A DNA stretch of 54,028 nucleotides from an uncultured Bdellovibrionales bacterium (lineage in GTDB: Bacteria > Patescibacteriota > Minisyncoccia > Moranbacterales > UBA2206). Positions within the stretch are counted from its first letter, which is position 1. Every line of letters starts with the position of its first letter. The DNA lies in assembly GCA_964438025.1 (NCBI GenBank), contig CAYTIK010000001.1, forward strand, positions 47,557 through 101,584, in the 5' to 3' direction. Made by a program: the position numbers and the translations under genes. The notes below the pieces were generated by a model. The model was not told where the DNA came from. It did no database searches and saw only the letters and a program-made list of their open reading frames with translations. Positions 1,653 through 52,382 of the stretch are shown piece by piece.

Positions 1653-1656
1653 ATTC

Positions 1657-1795
1657 ACCCCGTTAAATAATTTTGCTAAAGCAAAATTAAGATTTGAATG
1701 CTTTCAAAAAAACAGGGTATATTTATTAAAGATAAATTTTTAATTTAAAAATAAGCTTGCATTTCTAAGGGAAATTCAAATCTTATTTAACAGGG
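1657..1795. repeat. Nested inverted-repeat element in the NUDIX-yjbQ spacer
   Basis: Outer IR CCCCGTTAAAT (1658-1668) / ATTTAACAGGG (1785-1795), 10/11. Inner IR AAGATTTGAAT (1689-1699) / ATTCAAATCTT (1774-1784), 11/11. Side hairpin AATTTTGC-taaa-GCAAAATT. The 16-mer ACCCCGTTAAATAATT recurs at 36325-36340 on the minus strand. Confidence 0.6.
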
Positions 1796-1798
1796 TAA

Positions 1799-2242
1799 AT
1801 GAAAATTATCCATCACGTTATCAAGATGAAAACCGCCGCGACTTTGGATTTCATCGACATTACCGAAAAAATCCAGCAAAAAATCAAAGAGACTGGCATT
1901 AAAAATGGTGTAATTAATATCCAAAGCTTGCACACGACCATGGCCATCATTATCAATGAAGCCGAACCACTGCTCATTTCTGACATGAAAACGCTGCTGG
2001 AAAAAATGGCGCCGCGGACTTTTAAGTATATGCACGATAATTTCGAAATCCGCACTGTCAATATGTGCGATGGAGAATGCCAAAACGGCCATGCCCACGC
2101 CAAGGCTATCCACTTGCCAAGTTCCGCTTTTTTAAATATACTACAAAACCATCTGCAATTGGGCCGATGGCAGCGGGTTTTCGCGGTCGAACTCGACCGC
2201 TCGAGAGTGAGAGAGGTTTCACTGCAAATTATAGGTCAATAG
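1799..2242 (+). CDS. YjbQ/UPF0047 family protein (secondary thiamine-phosphate synthase-like)
   Basis: Family-typical SLHTTMAIIINE..., NGHAHAKA..., LQLGRWQRVFAVELD pattern. Confidence 0.8.
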   Translation: MKIIHHVIKMKTAATLDFIDITEKIQQKIKETGIKNGVINIQSLHTTMAIIINEAEPLLISDMKTLLEKMAPRTFKYMHDNFEIRTVNMCDGECQNGHAHAKAIHLPSSAFLNILQNHLQLGRWQRVFAVELDRSRVREVSLQIIGQ

Positions 2243-2779: not shown

Positions 2780-3071
2780 CCCCGCACTAATTTTTATTTA
2801 AAGATTTTTTTATTCTTTTTTTCAATTGAGCAAGCGCTTGGCCATGCTGTTTTATTTGTTTTTCTTTTTCCCATGCATCTTCTTCTGCAAAATAAGCTTC
2901 GTAATAAACAAGCTTCCATTTGTGATTTTTTGTATATAAAGAATGGCTATCATTATGTTGAAAAAATCTTTTTTTAAATCACTCGTACAGCCATAATATA
3001 ATTCGTTTTTTTCATTTTTTAGCACATAGAAGTAATGCATACGAATTAAAATAATAAAAGTTAGTGCGGGG
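2780..3071 (-). mobile_element. TIR-bounded GIY-YIG mini-element, copy 1 (ORF frameshifted)
   Basis: Arms CCCCGCACTAATTTTT (2780-2795) and AAAAGTTAGTGCGGGG (3056-3071) are 15/16 complementary. Same architecture and size (292 bp) as 37624-37914. Confidence 0.7.
2787..3040 (-). pseudogene. GIY-YIG (YhbQ/UPF0213-like) nuclease gene, interrupted by a 1-nt frameshift in an A7 run
   Basis: MHYFYVLKNEKNELYYGCTSDLKK continues in another frame as RFFQHNDSHSLYTKNHKWKLVYYEAYFAEEDAWEKEKQIKQHGQALAQLKKRIKKSLNKN*. The shift is at A7 (plus-strand T7, 2969-2975). About 65% identical by eye to the intact paralog at 37631-37885. Confidence 0.7.
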
Positions 3072-20035: not shown

Positions 20036-20472
20036 TTAATTAGATAAATTATTTTTTAACTCTTGTAATTGCCTCAATACACTACTATCCAAAATTTCAT
20101 CTCCGACTCGAATAATGATTCCGCCCTTGACTTTTTCATCAATAATATTATGCAAAATCACTTCCTTAGCCTGACCCGCCTGCTTTGCTACGCGAAGCGT
20201 TGCAGACAGGTATTTTTCTTTGATATATTTACTTACCTTATTACGTAATTCAGTATGTAATTCTTCATGGCTAGTAATCTCCGCTTCCACAATGCCTTTC
20301 TCTTGATTCCAGATTTCACCAAATTTTTATAAATTTTTGGAACTAACTTTAGTTGCCTATTTTTTTGCAAAATTTTCGTTAAATTTAAAACAGCCTCGCC
20401 AATTTCTTTTTGACTCTTATCTACAGTCGCTGCGTATAAACTTTTGGCGTATTGATTGACGGTAATCTTCAT
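20036..20472 (-). CDS. atpH: F1 ATP synthase delta subunit, split into two frames at an A5T3 run
   Basis: ORFs 20233-20472 and 20036-20290 together make a delta subunit (...[13 protein letters not shown]...[16 protein letters not shown]). The frames meet at plus-strand aaattttt, 20321-20328. Confidence 0.7.
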
Positions 20473-22787: not shown

Positions 22788-22852
22788 CCCCGCACTAACT
22801 TTTTACCTTTTTTATTTTTTGCGCTTTGGCGCAGTAAAAAGTTAGTGCGGGG
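22788..22852. mobile_element. ORF-less 65-bp derivative of the GIY-YIG element (TIRs only)
   Basis: CCCCGCACTAACTTTTT (22788-22804) and AAAAAGTTAGTGCGGGG (22836-22852) are 17/17 complementary. The 31-nt loop has its own TGCGC-tttg-GCGCA hairpin. Confidence 0.75.
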
Positions 22853-22861
22853 CAAGCCCCT

Positions 22862-23728
22862 TCAAAAAACTGGTAAATCAAACAGTTTCTGCGTATTTTG
22901 CGTGGTAATTTCCGCCACTTTTTCCGGAGTTATTTGCTTTATTTTAGCGATTTTTTCAGCGACATAAGCTACATACAGCGGTTCATTGCGCTGCCCTTTA
23001 AAAGGAACGGGAGTTAAGTATGGACAATCGGTTTCCACCAGTATTTTTTCCAAGGGTATTTCTTTTATCAATCGATCAAAACTGTCCGAATACGTGATGA
23101 CTCCATTAAGTCCGATCAAAAATCCCAGTTCGATAAACTTATTTGCCGTCTTATAGCCTCCGATAAAACTATGGATTACTCCTAACTTTTTAACCGGCTT
23201 ATTTTTTAATATCTCATACAGATCGTCATAAGCATCCCAGCAATGGATAATCATAGGTTTTTCTAACTCATTGGCCAGATCAATAAATTCCGCAAAAATT
23301 TCTTTTTGCTTGGTTTTTAGTTTTTCTATGTCATCTTCTGGTTCGAAGTGATGATAATCCAATCCCACTTCCCCAATCGCCACTACTTCTTTATTTTTCG
23401 CCAAGAGGCGATATTTTTCCATATCCATCTCTTCTCCGCTGGTTGTAATTTCCGTTTTTTCCAATTCGTTATTATCTTCATAGGTAAAACTTTTCGCTTG
23501 CAAATGCACTGGGTGCGTTCCGACCGCCGCCCATAACTTCCCAGGATATTCCTTAGCGTATTTGAGCGCCCGGACGCTGGTCGAATATTGCGAACCGACA
23601 TTGATAAAAAAGACGCTTTTGTCGAAAGCTCTTCTTATCACTTCTTCCGCGTCATCCTTAAACGCGCTGAAATTTACATGGGCGTGGGTGTCGATCAACA
23701 TAAACTTTTTATTTTTTTCTATATTCAA
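22862..23728 (-). CDS. tatD: TatD-family metal-dependent hydrolase
   Basis: LIDTHAHV N-terminus, ...GEVGLDY..., ...HCW..., ...ETDCPYL. Confidence 0.9.
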   Translation of the reverse strand: MNIEKNKKFMLIDTHAHVNFSAFKDDAEEVIRRAFDKSVFFINVGSQYSTSVRALKYAKEYPGKLWAAVGTHPVHLQAKSFTYEDNNELEKTEITTSGEEMDMEKYRLLAKNKEVVAIGEVGLDYHHFEPEDDIEKLKTKQKEIFAEFIDLANELEKPMIIHCWDAYDDLYEILKNKPVKKLGVIHSFIGGYKTANKFIELGFLIGLNGVITYSDSFDRLIKEIPLEKILVETDCPYLTPVPFKGQRNEPLYVAYVAEKIAKIKQITPEKVAEITTQNTQKLFDLPVF

Positions 23729-24269
23729 TTCTTTTTTGATAAAGCTTTTCGTTAAAACCTTCCTCTTTCATATGCTTATCCTTAAGAGAAATTATCAATT
23801 TATCAATCAAATAGTTGGACTGATTTATCAAAGTTATCATTAAATTAACCGCCTTTTCTTTTTCCTTAGGAAGATTGGGGAAATCAGGGTTATCAGGTAG
23901 TGCGGGATATTTTTTTATAATAACCCAAATTACTCCCATTTCCCTTATTTCCCCAATGGATTTTTCTTTTGGCCAGATTGGAATTTTATTCTGCCTAGCG
24001 TATGACAAATAATCACCCAGAAGTTCTTCCAATGAACCCCTGGCTACTCCGCAGAGTTTTATATAGCCAGCCAGGCTTTGTTGTTTGTTTCCTTCAGCAA
24101 TATTCTGCATTCCGGAACGAGCCGCTTGAACCATTTGATCAACAGTCCTGGAAAAACGGCTAACATTTTGTTCTGTAAATTGAACGGTCAAATCATAAAT
24201 CGGAACGGTTACTTTGTAAGCTAACAAATATTCATAGCCAGCTTTTTTATTTTGATTTTCGCTTTCCAT
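23709..24269 (-). CDS. Four-helix-bundle protein (23S rRNA intervening-sequence protein family) with suffix domain
   Basis: YKVTVPIYDLTVQF..., MQNIAEGN..., ARGSLEELLGDYLSYARQN pattern. Confidence 0.65.
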   Translation of the reverse strand: MESENQNKKAGYEYLLAYKVTVPIYDLTVQFTEQNVSRFSRTVDQMVQAARSGMQNIAEGNKQQSLAGYIKLCGVARGSLEELLGDYLSYARQNKIPIWPKEKSIGEIREMGVIWVIIKKYPALPDNPDFPNLPKEKEKAVNLMITLINQSNYLIDKLIISLKDKHMKEEGFNEKLYQKRIEYRKK

Positions 24270-37623: not shown

Positions 37624-37914
37624 CCCCGCGCTAACTTTCGTTCAAAGATTTTTTGATTCTTTTTCGCAGTTGCGCCCAGGCTTGTCCGAATTGTTTAATT
37701 TGTTTTTCCCTCTCTTCAGCATCCTCTTTTGAAAGATAAGCTTCGCAATAAATAAGTTTCCATTTATGATTTTTCGTAGAAAAAGAATTGCCATTGTTAT
37801 GCTCAAAAAATCTTTTTTTTAGATTATTAGTATAGCCATAATACAATTTCTGGATTTCATTTTTAATCACGTAAAAATAATACATATAGAATAATAACGA
37901 AAGTTAGTGCGGGA
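37624..37914 (-). mobile_element. TIR-bounded GIY-YIG mini-element, intact copy
   Basis: Arms CCCCGCGCTAACTTTCGTT (37624-37642) and AACGAAAGTTAGTGCGGGA (37896-37914) are 17/19 complementary. 291 bp in total. Confidence 0.75.
37631..37885 (-). CDS. GIY-YIG nuclease family protein (YhbQ/UPF0213-like, 84 aa)
   Basis: YFYVIKN...LYYGYTNNLKKRFFEHN...CEAYLSKEDAEEREKQIK (GIY / YIG / R / E pattern). Confidence 0.85.
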   Translation of the reverse strand: MYYFYVIKNEIQKLYYGYTNNLKKRFFEHNNGNSFSTKNHKWKLIYCEAYLSKEDAEEREKQIKQFGQAWAQLRKRIKKSLNES

Positions 37915-42464: not shown

Positions 42465-45400
42465 TTAGTCTTTTTTTATCTGCAATTTTATTTTTTCTCC
42501 GTCGATGACGGATTCCTTTTCCAGATCTGCGTTTTCAATATTTTCTGATTTTAGCTCGTTGGCCAAAATCTCCTTAGCAATAATATCGCCGAATTTTTCA
42601 AAGACCTGCGACATTCCAGAATAGCTGACAATTATGCGATTGTCAACTTCATAACCCGCTTCCTTGCGCATTTCCTGGATGAAGCGGATAATTTCGCGGG
42701 CTTGGCCTTCGAGTTTTAGTTCTGGAGTAATTTTGGTATCCAGTTCGATTTCTTTAAATTTTTTATCTTGAATAACTTTTTTAACATTCACTTCTTCTTG
42801 GATGATTTTCAAAAATTCCTTGCTTAATTCCTGACTCATAATTCTTAATTCCGCTAAGGGTTGGCGCACTTTTATACCATTTTTGGCTCTAAGCTGCAGC
42901 GCTACCGTAATAATATTCCTGGTTTCCGCCATTTTGTTATTTAATTTTTCATCAATCAGTTTTTCATCCGCTTTGGGAAAATCGGTCAGATGCACGGACC
43001 CGCCTGCATCGCTATGCGAAGCATTGCGGGCAGGTTCTTCACCGGTTAGATTTTTATAGATTTCTTCCGCAATAAATGGCGTAAACGGTGCCATCAGCTT
43101 GGCCAGTTCTGTTAATACCGTCCAAAGTGTCTGATAAGCATTTTCTTTATCGGCGTCGTCTTCCGATTTCCAAAATCGCTTACGGCTGCGGCGGATATAC
43201 CAATTAGAAAGATTATCAACAAATAACTCGAATGGTTTGGTTGATTTTACCAAATCATAACCTTGCATGCTTTCATCCACTTTTTTTATCAATTTATGCA
43301 GTTCGGAAATAATCCATTTATCTAATAAGTTTTTAGTTGGTGCTTGGTGGTTAATAGTCTTTAACGGTTCCCACTTATCCACACCGGCATACAGAACAAA
43401 GAAGGAATAACTATTCCACAAAGTCGCCAAGACTTTTCTTTGAATATCCTGAATCGGTTTTTCGGAAAAATTAATATTCTGCGCATCCAGCAGCGGCGAG
43501 GATAAAAAATAAAAACGTAAGGCATCGGCGCTATATTTTTCCAAGACAACATCTGGCAAGGTGTAATTTCCCAGTGATTTAGACATTTTTTTGCCATCTG
43601 ATCCGGCAATAGTCCCTGTCGTCACAACATTTTTGAAACTTTCTTTGCCGAATATCCCTACGGAAACAACATGCAGCACGTAGAACCAAGCTCTGGTTTG
43701 CGCGATATATTCGGAAATAAAATCAGTTGGAAAACTTTTTTCAAATTTTTCCTTATTCTCAAAAGGATAATGAAATTGGGCGAAAGGCATTGAGCCGGAC
43801 TCAATCCAGGAATCAAAAACTTGCGGAATTCTTTTCATAACTCCTCCGCATTTACAAGCAAATGAAATATTATCTACCCCCGGCCGATGATAATCTTCCA
43901 GTTCTACTCCGGAAACTTCCTTCAGCTCCGCGTATGATCCAAAAACTTTAATCTCTTGGCAATTTTCCCTATCGCATTTCCAAACCGGAATGGCTGTCCC
44001 AAAATAGCGATCACGAGAAATATTCCAATCCGGCGCGCTTTCAATTCCGTTCTGAAAACGACCGTGTTTGAGAAAATCCGGAAACCAACTAATATTTTCA
44101 TTCTGAGCGATTAAATCTGGCCGCATTTTAGCAATGTTTACATACCAAGCCGGTTGTGCCTTATAAATCAATTTTGTATGACACCGGTGGCAATGCGGGT
44201 AACTATGCGTTATTTGTTCTCGTTTAAAAAGTATCTTGTATTCTTTTAGCCAAGCTACAATTTTATCATTGGCATCCCAAACTTTTTGTCCCTGCCATTT
44301 GCCTTCCGTAAGTTTTCCCTCATCATCTACATTCATAATAATTGGCAAATCGTCAGTTTTTCTGGCATTAAAGTCATCTTCTCCGAAAGCTGGCGCAATA
44401 TGCACAATCCCCGTTCCGTCTTCAGTTGTTACGAAATTAGCTACGATAACTTTGTAAGCATTTTCTTCAAGCTTATCATGTAATTCAATATTTTTGACAA
44501 CATCTTTAGATCTTTTTTTAAAATTATTATCTTCTTTAATAGCAAATACTGATTCCTTATTTTCCTTTAAATCTATATTTTTAAGTGACGGAATAAACAT
44601 CCCTGCCTTAATATTATTTTGATAATAATCAAATATTGGCTCATATTTTTTACCCATTAAATCTTTACCTTTAAATTCTGCTTCAACTTTATATTCTTTA
44701 CCGGCAAAAACTTCTTCAACCCTATCTTTGGCTAAAATATAATAATCTTCTCCGCAAATAATTTTAACGTAATTAATTTCTCCGCCTACCGCCAAAGCCA
44801 CGTTAGCTAAAAGCGTCCAAGGCGTCGTCGTCCAAACGAGAAAATAAGCATTCTCTTCGCCTCTAATTTTCATTTTCACATATACCGACGGATCGCTGTC
44901 CATTTCATAACTATTATCCATCGCAATTTCAAAATTTGATAATGGCGTTGAACAGCGTGGGCAATAAAGTGAAACGCGCACATCTTCATAAATCAAACCT
45001 TTTTTAAACAATTCCGAAAATGCCCACCAAACCGATTCCATATAACCTTTATCCATGGTCTTGTAGGCATTTTTAAATTCCACCCAGCGGCCGATGCGAT
45101 CAATAATATCTTCCCATTCGCTGGCAATTTGGGAAGTCTCAGAGAGGCAAGCTTCATTGAACTTGGCAATTCCGATTTTTTCCTCAATTTCTTTTTTGCT
45201 CTTGATCCCCAATTTTTTTTCCACCATATTTTCCGCCGGCAGACCATGGCAATCCCATCCCCAGCGCCGTTCTATTCGGTAACCTTTCATAGCCCAATAT
45301 CTCGGCACAGTATCTTTAACAATGGAAGAAAGCAAGGTTCCATAATGCGGCACCCCTGTAATAAAGGGTGGGCCATCATAAAAGCTGTAATATTTATCTT

Positions 45401-45509
45401 TGCTTCTTTGCTCAATCGACTTTTCAAAAGTTTTGTCTTCTTTCCAAAATTCGATTACCTCTTTTTCCATTTCGGAATATTTTTTTCGCGCGTCGACTTT
45501 TTTAAACAT
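42465..45509 (-). CDS. ileS: Isoleucine--tRNA ligase (type 2 / eukaryote-like)
   Basis: PHYGTL (HIGH variant), KMSKSLGN, CP1 editing domain; 1014 aa. Confidence 0.95.
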   Translation of the reverse strand: MFKKVDARKKYSEMEKEVIEFWKEDKTFEKSIEQRSKDKYYSFYDGPPFITGVPHYGTLLSSIVKDTVPRYWAMKGYRIERRWGWDCHGLPAENMVEKKLGIKSKKEIEEKIGIAKFNEACLSETSQIASEWEDIIDRIGRWVEFKNAYKTMDKGYMESVWWAFSELFKKGLIYEDVRVSLYCPRCSTPLSNFEIAMDNSYEMDSDPSVYVKMKIRGEENAYFLVWTTTPWTLLANVALAVGGEINYVKIICGEDYYILAKDRVEEVFAGKEYKVEAEFKGKDLMGKKYEPIFDYYQNNIKAGMFIPSLKNIDLKENKESVFAIKEDNNFKKRSKDVVKNIELHDKLEENAYKVIVANFVTTEDGTGIVHIAPAFGEDDFNARKTDDLPIIMNVDDEGKLTEGKWQGQKVWDANDKIVAWLKEYKILFKREQITHSYPHCHRCHTKLIYKAQPAWYVNIAKMRPDLIAQNENISWFPDFLKHGRFQNGIESAPDWNISRDRYFGTAIPVWKCDRENCQEIKVFGSYAELKEVSGVELEDYHRPGVDNISFACKCGGVMKRIPQVFDSWIESGSMPFAQFHYPFENKEKFEKSFPTDFISEYIAQTRAWFYVLHVVSVGIFGKESFKNVVTTGTIAGSDGKKMSKSLGNYTLPDVVLEKYSADALRFYFLSSPLLDAQNINFSEKPIQDIQRKVLATLWNSYSFFVLYAGVDKWEPLKTINHQAPTKNLLDKWIISELHKLIKKVDESMQGYDLVKSTKPFELFVDNLSNWYIRRSRKRFWKSEDDADKENAYQTLWTVLTELAKLMAPFTPFIAEEIYKNLTGEEPARNASHSDAGGSVHLTDFPKADEKLIDEKLNNKMAETRNIITVALQLRAKNGIKVRQPLAELRIMSQELSKEFLKIIQEEVNVKKVIQDKKFKEIELDTKITPELKLEGQAREIIRFIQEMRKEAGYEVDNRIIVSYSGMSQVFEKFGDIIAKEILANELKSENIENADLEKESVIDGEKIKLQIKKD
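42999..43034. repeat. 36-nt GC-rich hairpin element, in frame in ileS
   Basis: Plus strand CCCGCCTGCATCGCTATGCGAAGCATTGCGGGCAGG. On the coding strand it encodes PARNASHSDAGG just before SVHLTDFP. Confidence 0.85.
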
Positions 45510-45940: not shown

Positions 45941-46155
45941 AAATAAAAAACATCCTTAAAGTCATATAAGGACGCTTCCGCGTGGTACCACCTTAATTTT
46001 CCCGTCAGTCGTGACTGACAGGACTCAATTTTGGCTATTACGGGCCCTGCCCGCAGTTGCTACGCATAAGCGTTGCAGGCGGGCTAACCGGCGAGATCTA
46101 CTCATCAATAAAGATTTTCTTCTCGCAGCTCCGAGGTGATAGCCTCATCATCGCT
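45941..46155 (-). promoter_or_regulatory. T-box riboswitch leader (Ile) with terminator/antiterminator
   Basis: Minus strand reads AAAAUUAAGGUGGUACCACGCGG (45978-46000). Antiterminator: UAAGG / 7-nt bulge UGGUACC / ACGC-GGAA-GCGU / CCUUA. Competing terminator CGUCCUUA...UAAGGAUG plus a U-run (45941-45974). The 5' end carries a GAUGAUGA K-turn-like motif. Confidence 0.8.
46046..46083. repeat. 38-nt member of the GC-rich hairpin family, embedded in the T-box leader
   Basis: Plus strand CCTGCCCGCAGTTGCTACGCATAAGCGTTGCAGGCGGG. Both 10-nt ends are identical to the ileS copy. Confidence 0.8.
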
Positions 46156-50139: not shown

Positions 50140-50613
50140 GGCTTCATCATACCGCAAAAAGCAAAAAAAGTAAAAATAATCAAATAATTTAAACTCTAAA
50201 TCTATCCGATTCTTCATCTCTCGCTACTTCATTTAATTACCCTCTATCTTCCTTTTCTCATCTTAAAATTACGACACACTTTCAGCCTAGGCTAAAATTG
50301 TGTAGTAATATTTTTTGAGTAATATGCACTGTTATGCTAAGAATTGCAATAAGATCCTGCCCTACTAGACAGGATATTAAGAATCGAGGATTTTTAGTTA
50401 AAAACTGCTCAGCCTACTGACGGAAAAGTTTCTAAAAATTACCGAGAATTTAAAATTCTAAAGCTCTAACTTGCCTACCTCACCGGCAGATGGGCGGAAC
50501 CGAAAAACAAACTCGTGGGCAACATACCATCTGCTGTCGGACCTGGCGCCGTGGCCACTTCGGGAGTGTTGTGCAGGTCGTATTTTTGTTTGAGGAAGTT
50601 AGGGTTTTCCATA

Positions 50614-51198
50614 TTATTTATTTTTAAACCCAATTACTTTTGTCATATCGTCTTTTGGATTAGTTTTTAGAAATTTAGCGAGCACCTTAAAGACAATCTT
50701 GAAATTTTTATCGTATTTTCCTTCCATTTTTTCAATTTTTTCTTGTAGCTCTTTATGGGTCATCAGCATTTTTCGCATTTGCGTAAATGTCCGCATAATC
50801 TGAATATTAACCTGAACAGCTCGATCGGAATTGAGAACGCTAGAAAGCATAGCCACGCCTTGTTCGGTAAAAACAAAGGAGAAGTATTTTGAATACCTCC
50901 CTCTACCCCGACCTTTTTCTAAGGTCACAAATTGTGATCTTAGAGATTTACTATTGAAACTTGAAGTCACAAATTGTGACTTCAAAAACAAATCAGCTTC
51001 TTGTTTGTTTAACTGGAACATAAAATCATCAGGAAATCTTTTTATATTTCTTTTTACCGACTGATTTAAAACCCTCGTTTCTACTCCATAAAGTTCCGCG
51101 AGGTCTTTATCGAACATTACTTTCTCGCCGCGAATGAAATATATTTTTCCGATAATCCGCTCGTTAGGTATGATGGCTAATAATTTTTGTTTTGACAT
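50614..51198 (-). CDS. ORF6N (KilA-N-like) domain DNA-binding protein
   Basis: VMFDKDLAELYGVETRVLNQSVKRNIKRFPDDFMFQL ... FTEQGVAMLSSVLNSDRAVQVNIQIMRTF. Confidence 0.8.
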   Translation of the reverse strand: MSKQKLLAIIPNERIIGKIYFIRGEKVMFDKDLAELYGVETRVLNQSVKRNIKRFPDDFMFQLNKQEADLFLKSQFVTSSFNSKSLRSQFVTLEKGRGRGRYSKYFSFVFTEQGVAMLSSVLNSDRAVQVNIQIMRTFTQMRKMLMTHKELQEKIEKMEGKYDKNFKIVFKVLAKFLKTNPKDDMTKVIGFKNK

Positions 51199-51329
51199 TA
51201 GTTTTTTTTATCAATACTTTTTTAGCTCTAAGCGCCAAAAAATCAAACTTTTGACTATTTAAAATATAGCATAAATTTAGAGAAAAAACATACTTGCATT
51301 GCTTCGTAAGCAAGCTATATACTAAATAT

Positions 51330-51884
51330 ATGACTACCGTAGCCACTAATAAAAGAGCCCATTTCGACTATCTCATCTCGGATAAATATGAGGCGGGTTT
51401 GGTTTTGACTGGCCAGGAGGTAAAATCAGTTAGAGCGGGACATATTAGCCTTAAAGAAAGCTTCGTCACCATCAAAGAATCTGAATTATTTTTAACCAAC
51501 GCCCATATCTCTTTTTACAAGCAAGCGGGTGAGATAAAAAGCTATAATCCGACCCGCCCGCGCAAGCTGCTCCTCAAAAAATCGGAAATCAAGCATTTAA
51601 TCGGAAAATTAAGGTTGCTTGGCTTGACACTCGTCCCTCTTCGCGTGTATACTAAAAAGCGTCCTGCCCGCAATGTTTCGCCTTTAAATAAGAACTTTTT
51701 TAACAAAACACTTGGTTCTAATTCAAAAAAAGAGTACTATCCAGAAAGTAAACATAGCGATGCAGGCGGGCTACTGAAGCTCGAATTCGGTATCGGCAAA
51801 GGAAAAAATAAGTTTGATAAACGGGAAGATCTGAAGAAGAAAGATGCGGATCGAGATATGCGGAGAGCTTTAAAAAATTACTAA
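51330..51884 (+). CDS. smpB: SsrA-binding protein SmpB carrying a 36-aa insertion
   Basis: NKRAHFDYLI...EAGLVLTGQEVKS...LLLKKSEI...LTLVPLRVY...KGKNKFDKRED. Start moved to MTTVATNK. Confidence 0.92.
   Translation: MTTVATNKRAHFDYLISDKYEAGLVLTGQEVKSVRAGHISLKESFVTIKESELFLTNAHISFYKQAGEIKSYNPTRPRKLLLKKSEIKHLIGKLRLLGLTLVPLRVYTKKRPARNVSPLNKNFFNKTLGSNSKKEYYPESKHSDAGGLLKLEFGIGKGKNKFDKREDLKKKDADRDMRRALKNY
51663..51770. repeat. GC-rich hairpin element with a nested 72-nt AT-rich insert, in frame in smpB
   Basis: CCTGCCCGCAATGTTTCGC + 72 nt + ATAGCGATGCAGGCGGG. The ends match the 36-nt ileS copy (reverse complement) at 35/36. Confidence 0.85.
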
Positions 51885-51922: not shown

Positions 51923-51958
51923 CCCGCCCGCATCGCTACGCGAAGCGTGGCGGGCGGG
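51923..51958. repeat. 36-nt GC-rich hairpin element abutting the tmRNA 5' end
   Basis: CCCGCCCGCATCGCTACGCGAAGCGTGGCGGGCGGG, 31/36 identical to the ileS copy. Confidence 0.85.
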
Positions 51959-52371
51959 GGTTGTTAAGTTTCGACAATTTGTACTTTCCAAACAAGCAAG
52001 CCGAGGATGATAATAGCTCGCTAAACCTTTATCAAAAGTTATAAGTGCCAACTTCATAACTAAAGCAAAATCGGTATTAGCTAACGCTTTTACCGCAAAT
52101 TTTGCCCTAGCCTTAGCCTAACCGCTTCCAAGCGGAGTTAAGGTTCATCGAATTGCCGATTTCTCATAGGCAAACCTCGGTGTCATATATGAGGATAGTC
52201 AAATAAGGCGTTCTAAACTTTTTTGGCGAAGCTAAATTTAGAAATAGATTGAGAAGGTTTTGTCCGCTTTCCACTTCCTAATCGAAGCTCGCAAGGCTTT
52301 AAAGCTGAATACGCTTGTAGAATGTTTTGAAAGAATAAATTTGGACGCGAGTGCAATTCTCGCCAACTCCA
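51957..52371 (+). ncRNA. ssrA: tmRNA (SsrA)
   Basis: 5' GGGGUUG...UUCGAC. 3' T-arm GCGAG-UGCAAUU-CUCGC and acceptor CAACUCC-A, giving a 7-bp stem with G3.U70. Tag ORF ends ...ANAFTANFALALA-UAA (52065-52121). Lies directly after smpB. Confidence 0.88.
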
Positions 52372-52382
52372 CTAATCATTAA

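Follow-up and report, generated by a model that had tools for sequence, protein, structure and literature searches.

A 36-codon hairpin insert in smpB, probably the translated long form of a mobile palindrome family

The question raised by this locus is what 36 surplus codons are doing in the gene for SmpB, and how a palindrome split by AT-rich DNA came to lie there in frame. The insert, 108 nt at 51663..51770 of the window (the whole 54,028-nt stretch of DNA analysed here), is stop-free and lies within the smpB reading frame of a genome whose SmpB has its closest protein relatives in Candidatus Moranbacteria (Patescibacteria / candidate phyla radiation, CPR). It is probably a translated mobile hairpin, similar in kind to Rickettsia palindromic elements (RPEs), REPs and MITEs, and present in the long form of its family.

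The smpB insert and its site in relatives

smpB is an essential gene of ribosome rescue, and its product here is firmly identified as SmpB (Pfam PF01668 at 1.3e-48; NCBIfam equivalog score above cut-off). The gene and the parts of its insert are as follows.

51330..51884, plus strand: smpB, coding for 184 aa from the ATG at 51330, of which residues 112–147, between Arg111 and Leu148, come from the insert
51663..51680, plus strand: 5' arm of the hairpin element (CCTGCCCGCAATGTTTCG), encoding PARNVS, identical in L001 and L089
51681..51752, plus strand: 72-nt AT-rich core at the dyad centre, in frame and stop-free, its boundary ambiguous by 1 nt
51753..51770, plus strand: 3' arm (CATAGCGATGCAGGCGGG), encoding HSDAGG

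Written out, the insert is CCTGCCCGCAATGTTTCG(C), 72 AT-rich nt and (C)ATAGCGATGCAGGCGGG, the common C leaving a 1-nt ambiguity at each junction, so that the split can be read as 19+72+17 or 18+72+18. Between the outer 18+18 nt and the ileS hairpin, 35/36 positions agree and the reading frame is shared, and the 108 nt make up 36 codons with no stop, keeping SmpB in frame; both points bear out an earlier note on this DNA. That note had further placed the insert in a β-hairpin loop, and alignment to solved SmpB structures agrees, assigning it to the loop of the last SmpB β-hairpin: query residues up to 110 pair with residues up to 121 of 7ljp, and query residues from 146 onwards with residues from 122 onwards. 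Because the alignment breaks exactly there, the segment is a clean insertion between two β-strands, at the consecutive 7ljp residues 121/122. A low-confidence AlphaFold model from a shallow alignment (pLDDT 46, too poor to show the direction of the loop) has strands at 99–109 and 148–158, with coil between them. Judged from sequence, the insert is likely to be translated, giving a loop of 36 residues that is probably disordered.

The arms of the insert are able to pair across the core, with a fold z of the hairpin of −3.2 to −4.6, and the chance expectation for half-site matches in shuffles was 0.04 and 0.09. The 72 nt do lie inside the hairpin element, as first described, but not simply in its inner stem: the split falls at the dyad centre, which, according to the register of the fold, is the apical loop or the upper end of the inner stem. 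The insert is no product of misassembly, being present in independent assemblies (L001, L089 and the cluster members P0121 and P0122). An intein or self-splicing intron was considered and rejected, as Pfam detected SmpB only, Rfam detected nothing in the insert, and 108 nt is too short; Rfam likewise held no family matching the hairpin.

Most relatives have an insert-free SmpB of 148 aa, P0002 and P0003 have the same 36-aa insert, and inserts of 14–15 aa or 33–35 aa occur in other lineages at exactly the same SmpB position. Filled and empty sites (AAAAARCGN/CTN) differ in their DNA by the element alone, which sits between the Arg and Leu codons, and comparison of these smpB sites showed no target-site duplication or footprint. 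Related hairpins occupy the site in L086 (45 nt, 9 of them additional nt in the middle), L081 (105 nt) and L083 (99 nt, decayed). The centre content at orthologous smpB sites differs by species, with 45 nt in one form as against 105–108 nt in the other, and the smpB inserts of L002, L010 and L013 are hairpins of another family with the same CCYGCC...GGCGGG ends.

Among five sampled close lineages, the insert is present in three (window, L089 and L001) and precisely absent from two (L088 and L090). A codon-based smpB tree computed with the insert excluded has the form ((L090 empty, (L088 empty, window filled)), (L089 filled, L001 filled)), with a bootstrap value of 90% for the window and L088. 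The tree therefore implies at least two events, whether gain or precise loss, in the history of the 108-nt element inside this tight clade. The element at smpB is at least as old as the common ancestor of this small Moranbacteria clade. Next to the gene, about 1.1 kb of the argS–smpB interval (window 50177–51283), containing an ORF6N-domain ORF at 50614..51198 on the minus strand, is found in this genome only, and is absent from L001, L088, L089 and L090.

Selection on the insert was estimated by comparing the window, L001 and L089.

Rest of smpB: omega 0.07–0.14, dS 0.75–0.87
72-nt core: omega 0.22–0.28, dS 0.48–0.81
Arms: omega not informative, dS 0–0.12

The insert is a multiple of three in length and stop-free in all three lineages. 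Its core has a dS similar to that of the remaining gene; going by these substitution patterns, it dates back to the species split and changes in the manner of translated sequence under weak constraint. In the arms, 0–1 synonymous change was counted per pair where about 4.6 would be expected. Such near-frozen synonymous sites hint at function or constraint, and the conservation of the arms in situ, far beyond the prediction for a selfish insert in decay, is a point against the mobile-hairpin reading. It contrasts with the ileS site, which holds the 36-mer in the window, a different hairpin in the relative L001 and nothing in L090, and at which, as at smpB, filled and empty sites revealed no target duplication. 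The T14 variant is common to all three smpB copies, which argues against homogenisation from other copies. Arm identity is an unbiased measure in the smpB group only, the other host groups (A–C) having been found via the arm pattern and being biased accordingly.

One could instead see in the insert a functional, lineage-specific extension of SmpB that was favoured for its part in trans-translation; this would fit some purifying selection on the core and the reuse of the insertion site in several Moranbacteria lineages. The relatives nearest to this SmpB, with 97% identity over the remainder of the sequence, are nevertheless entirely insert-free, and the same element is found in IleS, AtpH, GyrA, kinases, glycosyltransferases and non-coding DNA, which makes such a selected extension very improbable. 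The pairing of the arms across the core and the conservation of arm nucleotides, synonymous sites included, would also be expected if the segment were removed before or during protein synthesis, by excision from the RNA or by ribosomal bypass, to give an SmpB of normal length; bypassed GC-rich hairpin inserts are known from yeast mitochondria. A removed segment would have no need of a length divisible by three or of a stop-free core, yet both are kept in three lineages with a core omega of about 0.25. Throughout the family, moreover, genic copies keep the triplet length and an open frame whereas intergenic variants do not, and Rfam gave no match to an intron or ribozyme family. We consider removal highly unlikely, and prefer the reading of a translated hairpin.

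A dispersed hairpin family with a recurrent long form

A covariance model located five copies of the 36-nt hairpin family in the 54-kb window. Outside smpB, the features concerned are the following.

20175..20210, minus strand: 36-nt copy in the C-terminal part (OSCP domain) of atpH, in the other tolerated forward frame
42999..43034, minus strand: 36-nt copy in ileS, frame PARNASHSDAGG, the same frame as the smpB copy
46046..46083, plus strand: 38-nt intergenic variant copy
51923..51958, minus strand: intergenic copy in the smpB–tmRNA spacer, its end abutting or overlapping the tmRNA 5' end
51957..52374, plus strand: tmRNA gene (Rfam RF00023, 129 bits)

The same layout, with a hairpin abutting the mature 5' end of tmRNA, is seen in L037 and L116. 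The window tmRNA was missed by ARAGORN and detected by Rfam. Two of the host genes have further peculiarities. The IleRS gene (ileS, 42465-45509, minus strand) has a window-specific, AT-rich, in-frame insertion of 51 aa (YYQNNIKAGMF...HDKLEE) at about 44430-44585, which is absent from L001 and L090, and the ileS of L001 has insertions of its own at other places in the gene. The atpH gene (ATP synthase delta, 20036-20470, minus strand) is divided into two reading frames with a break near 20320-20335 at an A5T3 run, reflecting either a frameshift or an assembly error.

The consensus 36-mer consists of CCTGCCCGCAATGCTTCG followed by CATAGCGATGCAGGCGGG, and exists as two subfamilies that differ by four linked transitions. 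A scan of one genome per GTDB species with a 19-nt arm pattern returned at least 119 loci. Their CPR hosts include Daviesbacteria, Nomurabacteria, Paceibacterota, Giovannonibacteria, Portnoybacteria, Wolfebacteria, Jorgensenbacteria, Dojkabacteria, Moranbacteria and others; beyond the CPR, matches lie in metagenome-assembled genomes labelled Verrucomicrobiota, Kiritimatiellia and Margulisiibacteriota, several of them on Verrucomicrobiae contigs of 0.4–1.3 Mb. The family also occurs on five viral contigs. Fourteen of 122 arm-pattern matches lack a 5' arm; some of these are chance matches in GC-rich genomes (Streptomyces, Actinomycetota), and at least two, L136 and L167, are long forms with the 5' arm further upstream. 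An apparent PARN... match in L019 was dismissed as due to chance. The literature search found no published description carrying these sequence or peptide strings, its topic matches being papers on RPEs, REPs and MITEs.

Of the 122 copies among the matches listed, 82 have a length of exactly 36 nt, and 35 of these 82 lie in ORFs of at least 150 codons in the PARNASHSDAGG frame, which is the frame of most genic copies (for example, in the GyrA gene of L186 and in a Ser/Thr kinase gene of L173). The 36-mer itself is open in five of its six frames. In AT-rich hosts most copies lie within long ORFs, and 46 of 47 units in long ORFs there have a length divisible by three (36, 54, 72, 105 or 108 nt), as against 0 of 9 intergenic units of lengths other than 36 nt, a comparison that is partly circular owing to the ORF criterion. 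Non-coding copies are often found at the apex of a host hairpin. Three element-derived peptides, PARIAMQSIAGG and then PARNASLSDAVG and PARNASRSDAGG in tandem, occur together in one class I aminoacyl-tRNA synthetase of a Gribaldobacteria genome (L132:1647-4733); its similarity to the window ileS marks the enzyme as isoleucyl-type.

The size of the smpB element is not peculiar to it. A gapped-pattern scan found long forms of 100–111 nt at 16 loci, eleven of them exactly 105 nt long, with an architecture of an 18-nt arm, an AT-rich core of about 69 nt and a second 18-nt arm that recurs at no fewer than four host sites: a GT4 glycosyltransferase gene (five species), a radical-SAM/ELP3-like gene (four species, in another frame), the 16S leader and smpB. 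In the 16S rRNA leader of Moranbacteria, about 130–150 nt upstream, three species have a form of 105–107 nt and two a form of 52 nt; a hairpin at this conserved position was noted in L223, L156, L092, L167 and L219. The AT-rich cores of the long forms change rapidly, with no significant resemblance between different host sites or, in some cases, between orthologous cores. At the same central position, a 36-mer is nested in another 36-mer in L017, L107, L121, L125, L135 and L151, and the dyad centre carries short stem extensions as well.

It had been suggested that the 72-nt segment might itself be a repeat. Beyond the orthologous smpB of L001 (85% identity), blastn and tblastn gave no second copy, either in the window or in 87 related loci with a total of about 1.2 Mb. 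The earlier description of a nested insertion therefore stands in part: extra DNA of 72 nt does lie inside the element, and central nesting is recurrent in the family, but a one-off second hit is not what the data describe. With no other copy of the core, a composite element in all three carriers and an architecture that recurs elsewhere, the smpB element is better called a long form of the family. The dyad centre is a real hot spot, and the smpB composite is of a type that belongs to the family.

These observations bear on whether the insert arose by two successive events, a 36-nt hairpin arriving first and an unrelated 72 nt entering its centre later, in situ. Insertion at the exact centre has occurred repeatedly, as the six 36-in-36 loci illustrate, other Moranbacteria have a short hairpin (42–45 nt) alone at the same smpB site, and in the 16S leader the centre content differs by species. 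A 36-nt-only intermediate is, however, absent from the clade with the 108-nt form, the 72 nt has no second copy anywhere searched, and the near-constant length of about 105 nt of the long forms elsewhere suggests that they are a defined composite or have their origin in common, and not that a second hit fell there arbitrarily. Two independent steps at smpB are thus a possible, if unlikely, history. The core may have entered in situ, may have arrived together with the arms, or may be what decay has left of nested copies or a cargo gene.

GIY-YIG ORFs, sister hairpins and possible mobilisation

Small GIY-YIG ORFs (PF01541, about 80 aa) were the only candidate nucleases seen near the hairpins. 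They lie within about 10–60 nt of a 36-mer hairpin at some 10 of about 119 loci among the matches listed, where they adjoin an intact tRNA-Val, tRNA-Glu or tRNA-Gln gene, with the hairpin lying inside a partial tRNA duplicate across the ORF. Units of this kind, with a hairpin-interrupted tRNA duplicate, were observed in L111, L114, L166, L112, L103, L159 and L230, the last of which has two complete hairpins in tandem GIY-YIG units. The smpB–tmRNA spacer contains a GIY-YIG ORF in L031, L037, L088 and L089 and the hairpin alone in the window.

Sister hairpin families hold such ORFs between their arms. A second family, with the pattern CCCCGCACTAAC...GTTAGTGCGGGG, is represented in the window by three of the features listed here; the fourth carries the arms of a cassette type found in L148.

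1653..1800, plus strand: arms of the L148-type GIY-YIG cassette with the right end of the cassette, a 112-nt AT-rich core and no ORF
2781..3071, minus strand: second hairpin family bracketing a frameshifted GIY-YIG ORF
22788..22852, plus strand: second hairpin family, empty, with a 27-nt spacer between arms of 19 nt
37625..37913, minus strand: second hairpin family (CCCGCACTAACTTTCG / CGAAAGTTAGCGCGGG) with an intact GIY-YIG ORF (37631..37885, 84 aa) at its centre

GIY-YIG ORFs bracketed by hairpin arms also occur in L058, L148 and L199, and the segment at 1653..1800 is probably a GIY-YIG cassette with an internal deletion. An ORF inside the arms was found in the sister families only, the smpB copy having none. 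Arms of the 36-mer family lying 120–4000 nt apart were not found in the loci examined, nor were arms 236–357 nt apart bracketing cargo in the GTDB genomes; the sole match of these scans, L230, was rejected as the two complete hairpins of its tandem units. As no 36-mer-family arms were found around a gene, the connection of this family to GIY-YIG nucleases is one that we infer. No transposase was detected among 50 ORFs of the window scanned with Pfam, and a Y1 (RAYT) transposase was absent both from these ORFs and from the gene clusters near copies. An ORF at 23712-24269 on the minus strand of the window encodes the domain of 23S rRNA intervening-sequence proteins (PF05635), and comparable ORFs are present in several CPR loci.

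The core of the smpB insert may alternatively be decayed DNA: two inner 36-mers worn down by mutation with an AT bias, or what is left of a cassette of the GIY-YIG type. The length of 108 nt equals 3 x 36, and the core compared with two 36-mers gives z values of 2–3 (p 0.002–0.03) in an ungapped, transition-tolerant comparison, a signal that is weak and post hoc. Recognisable decayed 5' arms are present in the cores of L213 and L083, and the segment at 1653..1800 illustrates how a GIY-YIG cassette can be reduced to its arms and an AT-rich core. Long forms are mostly 105 nt and not 108 nt, the translated core has no similarity to GIY-YIG proteins, and arms of the 36-mer family surrounding a gene are missing from the loci examined and from the GTDB scans. 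Taken with these points, an origin of the core by decay is doubtful.

The translated, mobile hairpin that we favour would belong to a non-autonomous element that lands in many places. Within genes, only copies with a length divisible by three and a stop-free frame, placed in permissive loops, would survive, with the hydrophilic frame PARNASHSDAGG predominating. The dyad centre would be the preferred place for extra DNA, be it nested copies, stem extensions or AT-rich cores of about 69–72 nt; in the sister families the centre takes up whole GIY-YIG genes. The smpB core would be one instance of such extra DNA at the centre. The folded hairpin, in single strands or as a cruciform, would probably be the substrate of mobilisation by a trans-acting enzyme, for which the small GIY-YIG nucleases next to or inside hairpins are the best candidate, offered as a lead only. 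Recent, near-identical long-form copies at different sites were not found, which counts against transposition.

A more far-reaching and quite unlikely version is that the 36-mer and its sister hairpins are the ends or landing pads of an undescribed mobile element in which minimal GIY-YIG nucleases (about 80 aa) act on folded hairpins. Cargo would enter at the dyad centre, stripped derivatives, first of 105 nt and then of 36 nt, would have spread across phyla and into coding sequences, and the arms would be kept as substrates or for a role at the level of the host.

Comparison with known repeats and significance

The functionally closest known system is that of the RPEs, which are palindromic repeats found in frame in many genes, where they encode a conserved, tolerated peptide (MITE review PMC10969869). 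The present hairpin, too, is found in many dispersed copies, with in-frame genic insertions that encode a conserved peptide (smpB, ileS and atpH). Both are dispersed palindromes, lying in frame in unrelated and often essential genes and near or in stable RNA genes, and both are patchily present among close relatives. RPEs, in contrast, are about 100–150 bp long, form ten families and are restricted to Rickettsia, whereas the family described here has a 36-nt unit and a 105-nt long form, has nearly the same sequence in many CPR classes and in the Verrucomicrobiota, Kiritimatiellia and Margulisiibacteriota genomes, is open in five of six frames and accepts nested insertions at its dyad centre. 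Since size and hosts differ, we regard the family as RPE-like in action and do not file it as an RPE.

With REPs and REPINs the family shares GC-rich imperfect palindromes of 20–40 nt in many copies with no target duplication, and a GTAG or ATAG motif; REPINs, hairpins of about 100 nt with two inverted arms and a spacer, resemble the long form. REPs are described (PMC3733652) as extragenic and genome-specific, with GTAG or CGTC at one end. Most CPR copies of the 36-mer are instead intragenic, and their G/ATAG lies at the dyad centre and not at an end. MITEs (Correia, ERIC, BOX, Nezha and others) are likewise short and non-autonomous with terminal inverted repeats, and are sometimes intragenic, giving in-frame fusions (PMC10969869); they normally have target-site duplications and share their ends with identifiable IS elements, neither of which was seen here. 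The family accordingly fails the defining features of REP/REPINs and MITEs, being intragenic, with no target-site duplication, no terminal GTAG and no RAYT or IS partner seen. Free-standing GIY-YIG homing-endonuclease cassettes are similar in having small PF01541 ORFs by tRNA or tmRNA genes, in partially duplicating their target and in being present or absent among close relatives. The putative nuclease ORFs described here differ from them in being only about 80 aa long, in lacking a DNA-binding domain and in lying beside or inside hairpin repeats.

If this reading is correct, CPR bacteria and some Verrucomicrobiota would have an RPE-like system, in which a tiny palindrome has been written into the essential proteins SmpB, IleRS, ATP synthase delta and GyrA without breaking them, and in which almost the same 36 bases have been kept across very distant lineages. 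It would amount to a natural experiment on the tolerance and recruitment of inserted peptides by proteins, would provide a marker of horizontal DNA flow among uncultivated groundwater bacteria, and would serve as a warning for the annotation of CPR proteins, in which unexplained insertions are common. The GIY-YIG link, together with insertion at the hairpin centre, would make the mechanism of mobilisation directly testable.
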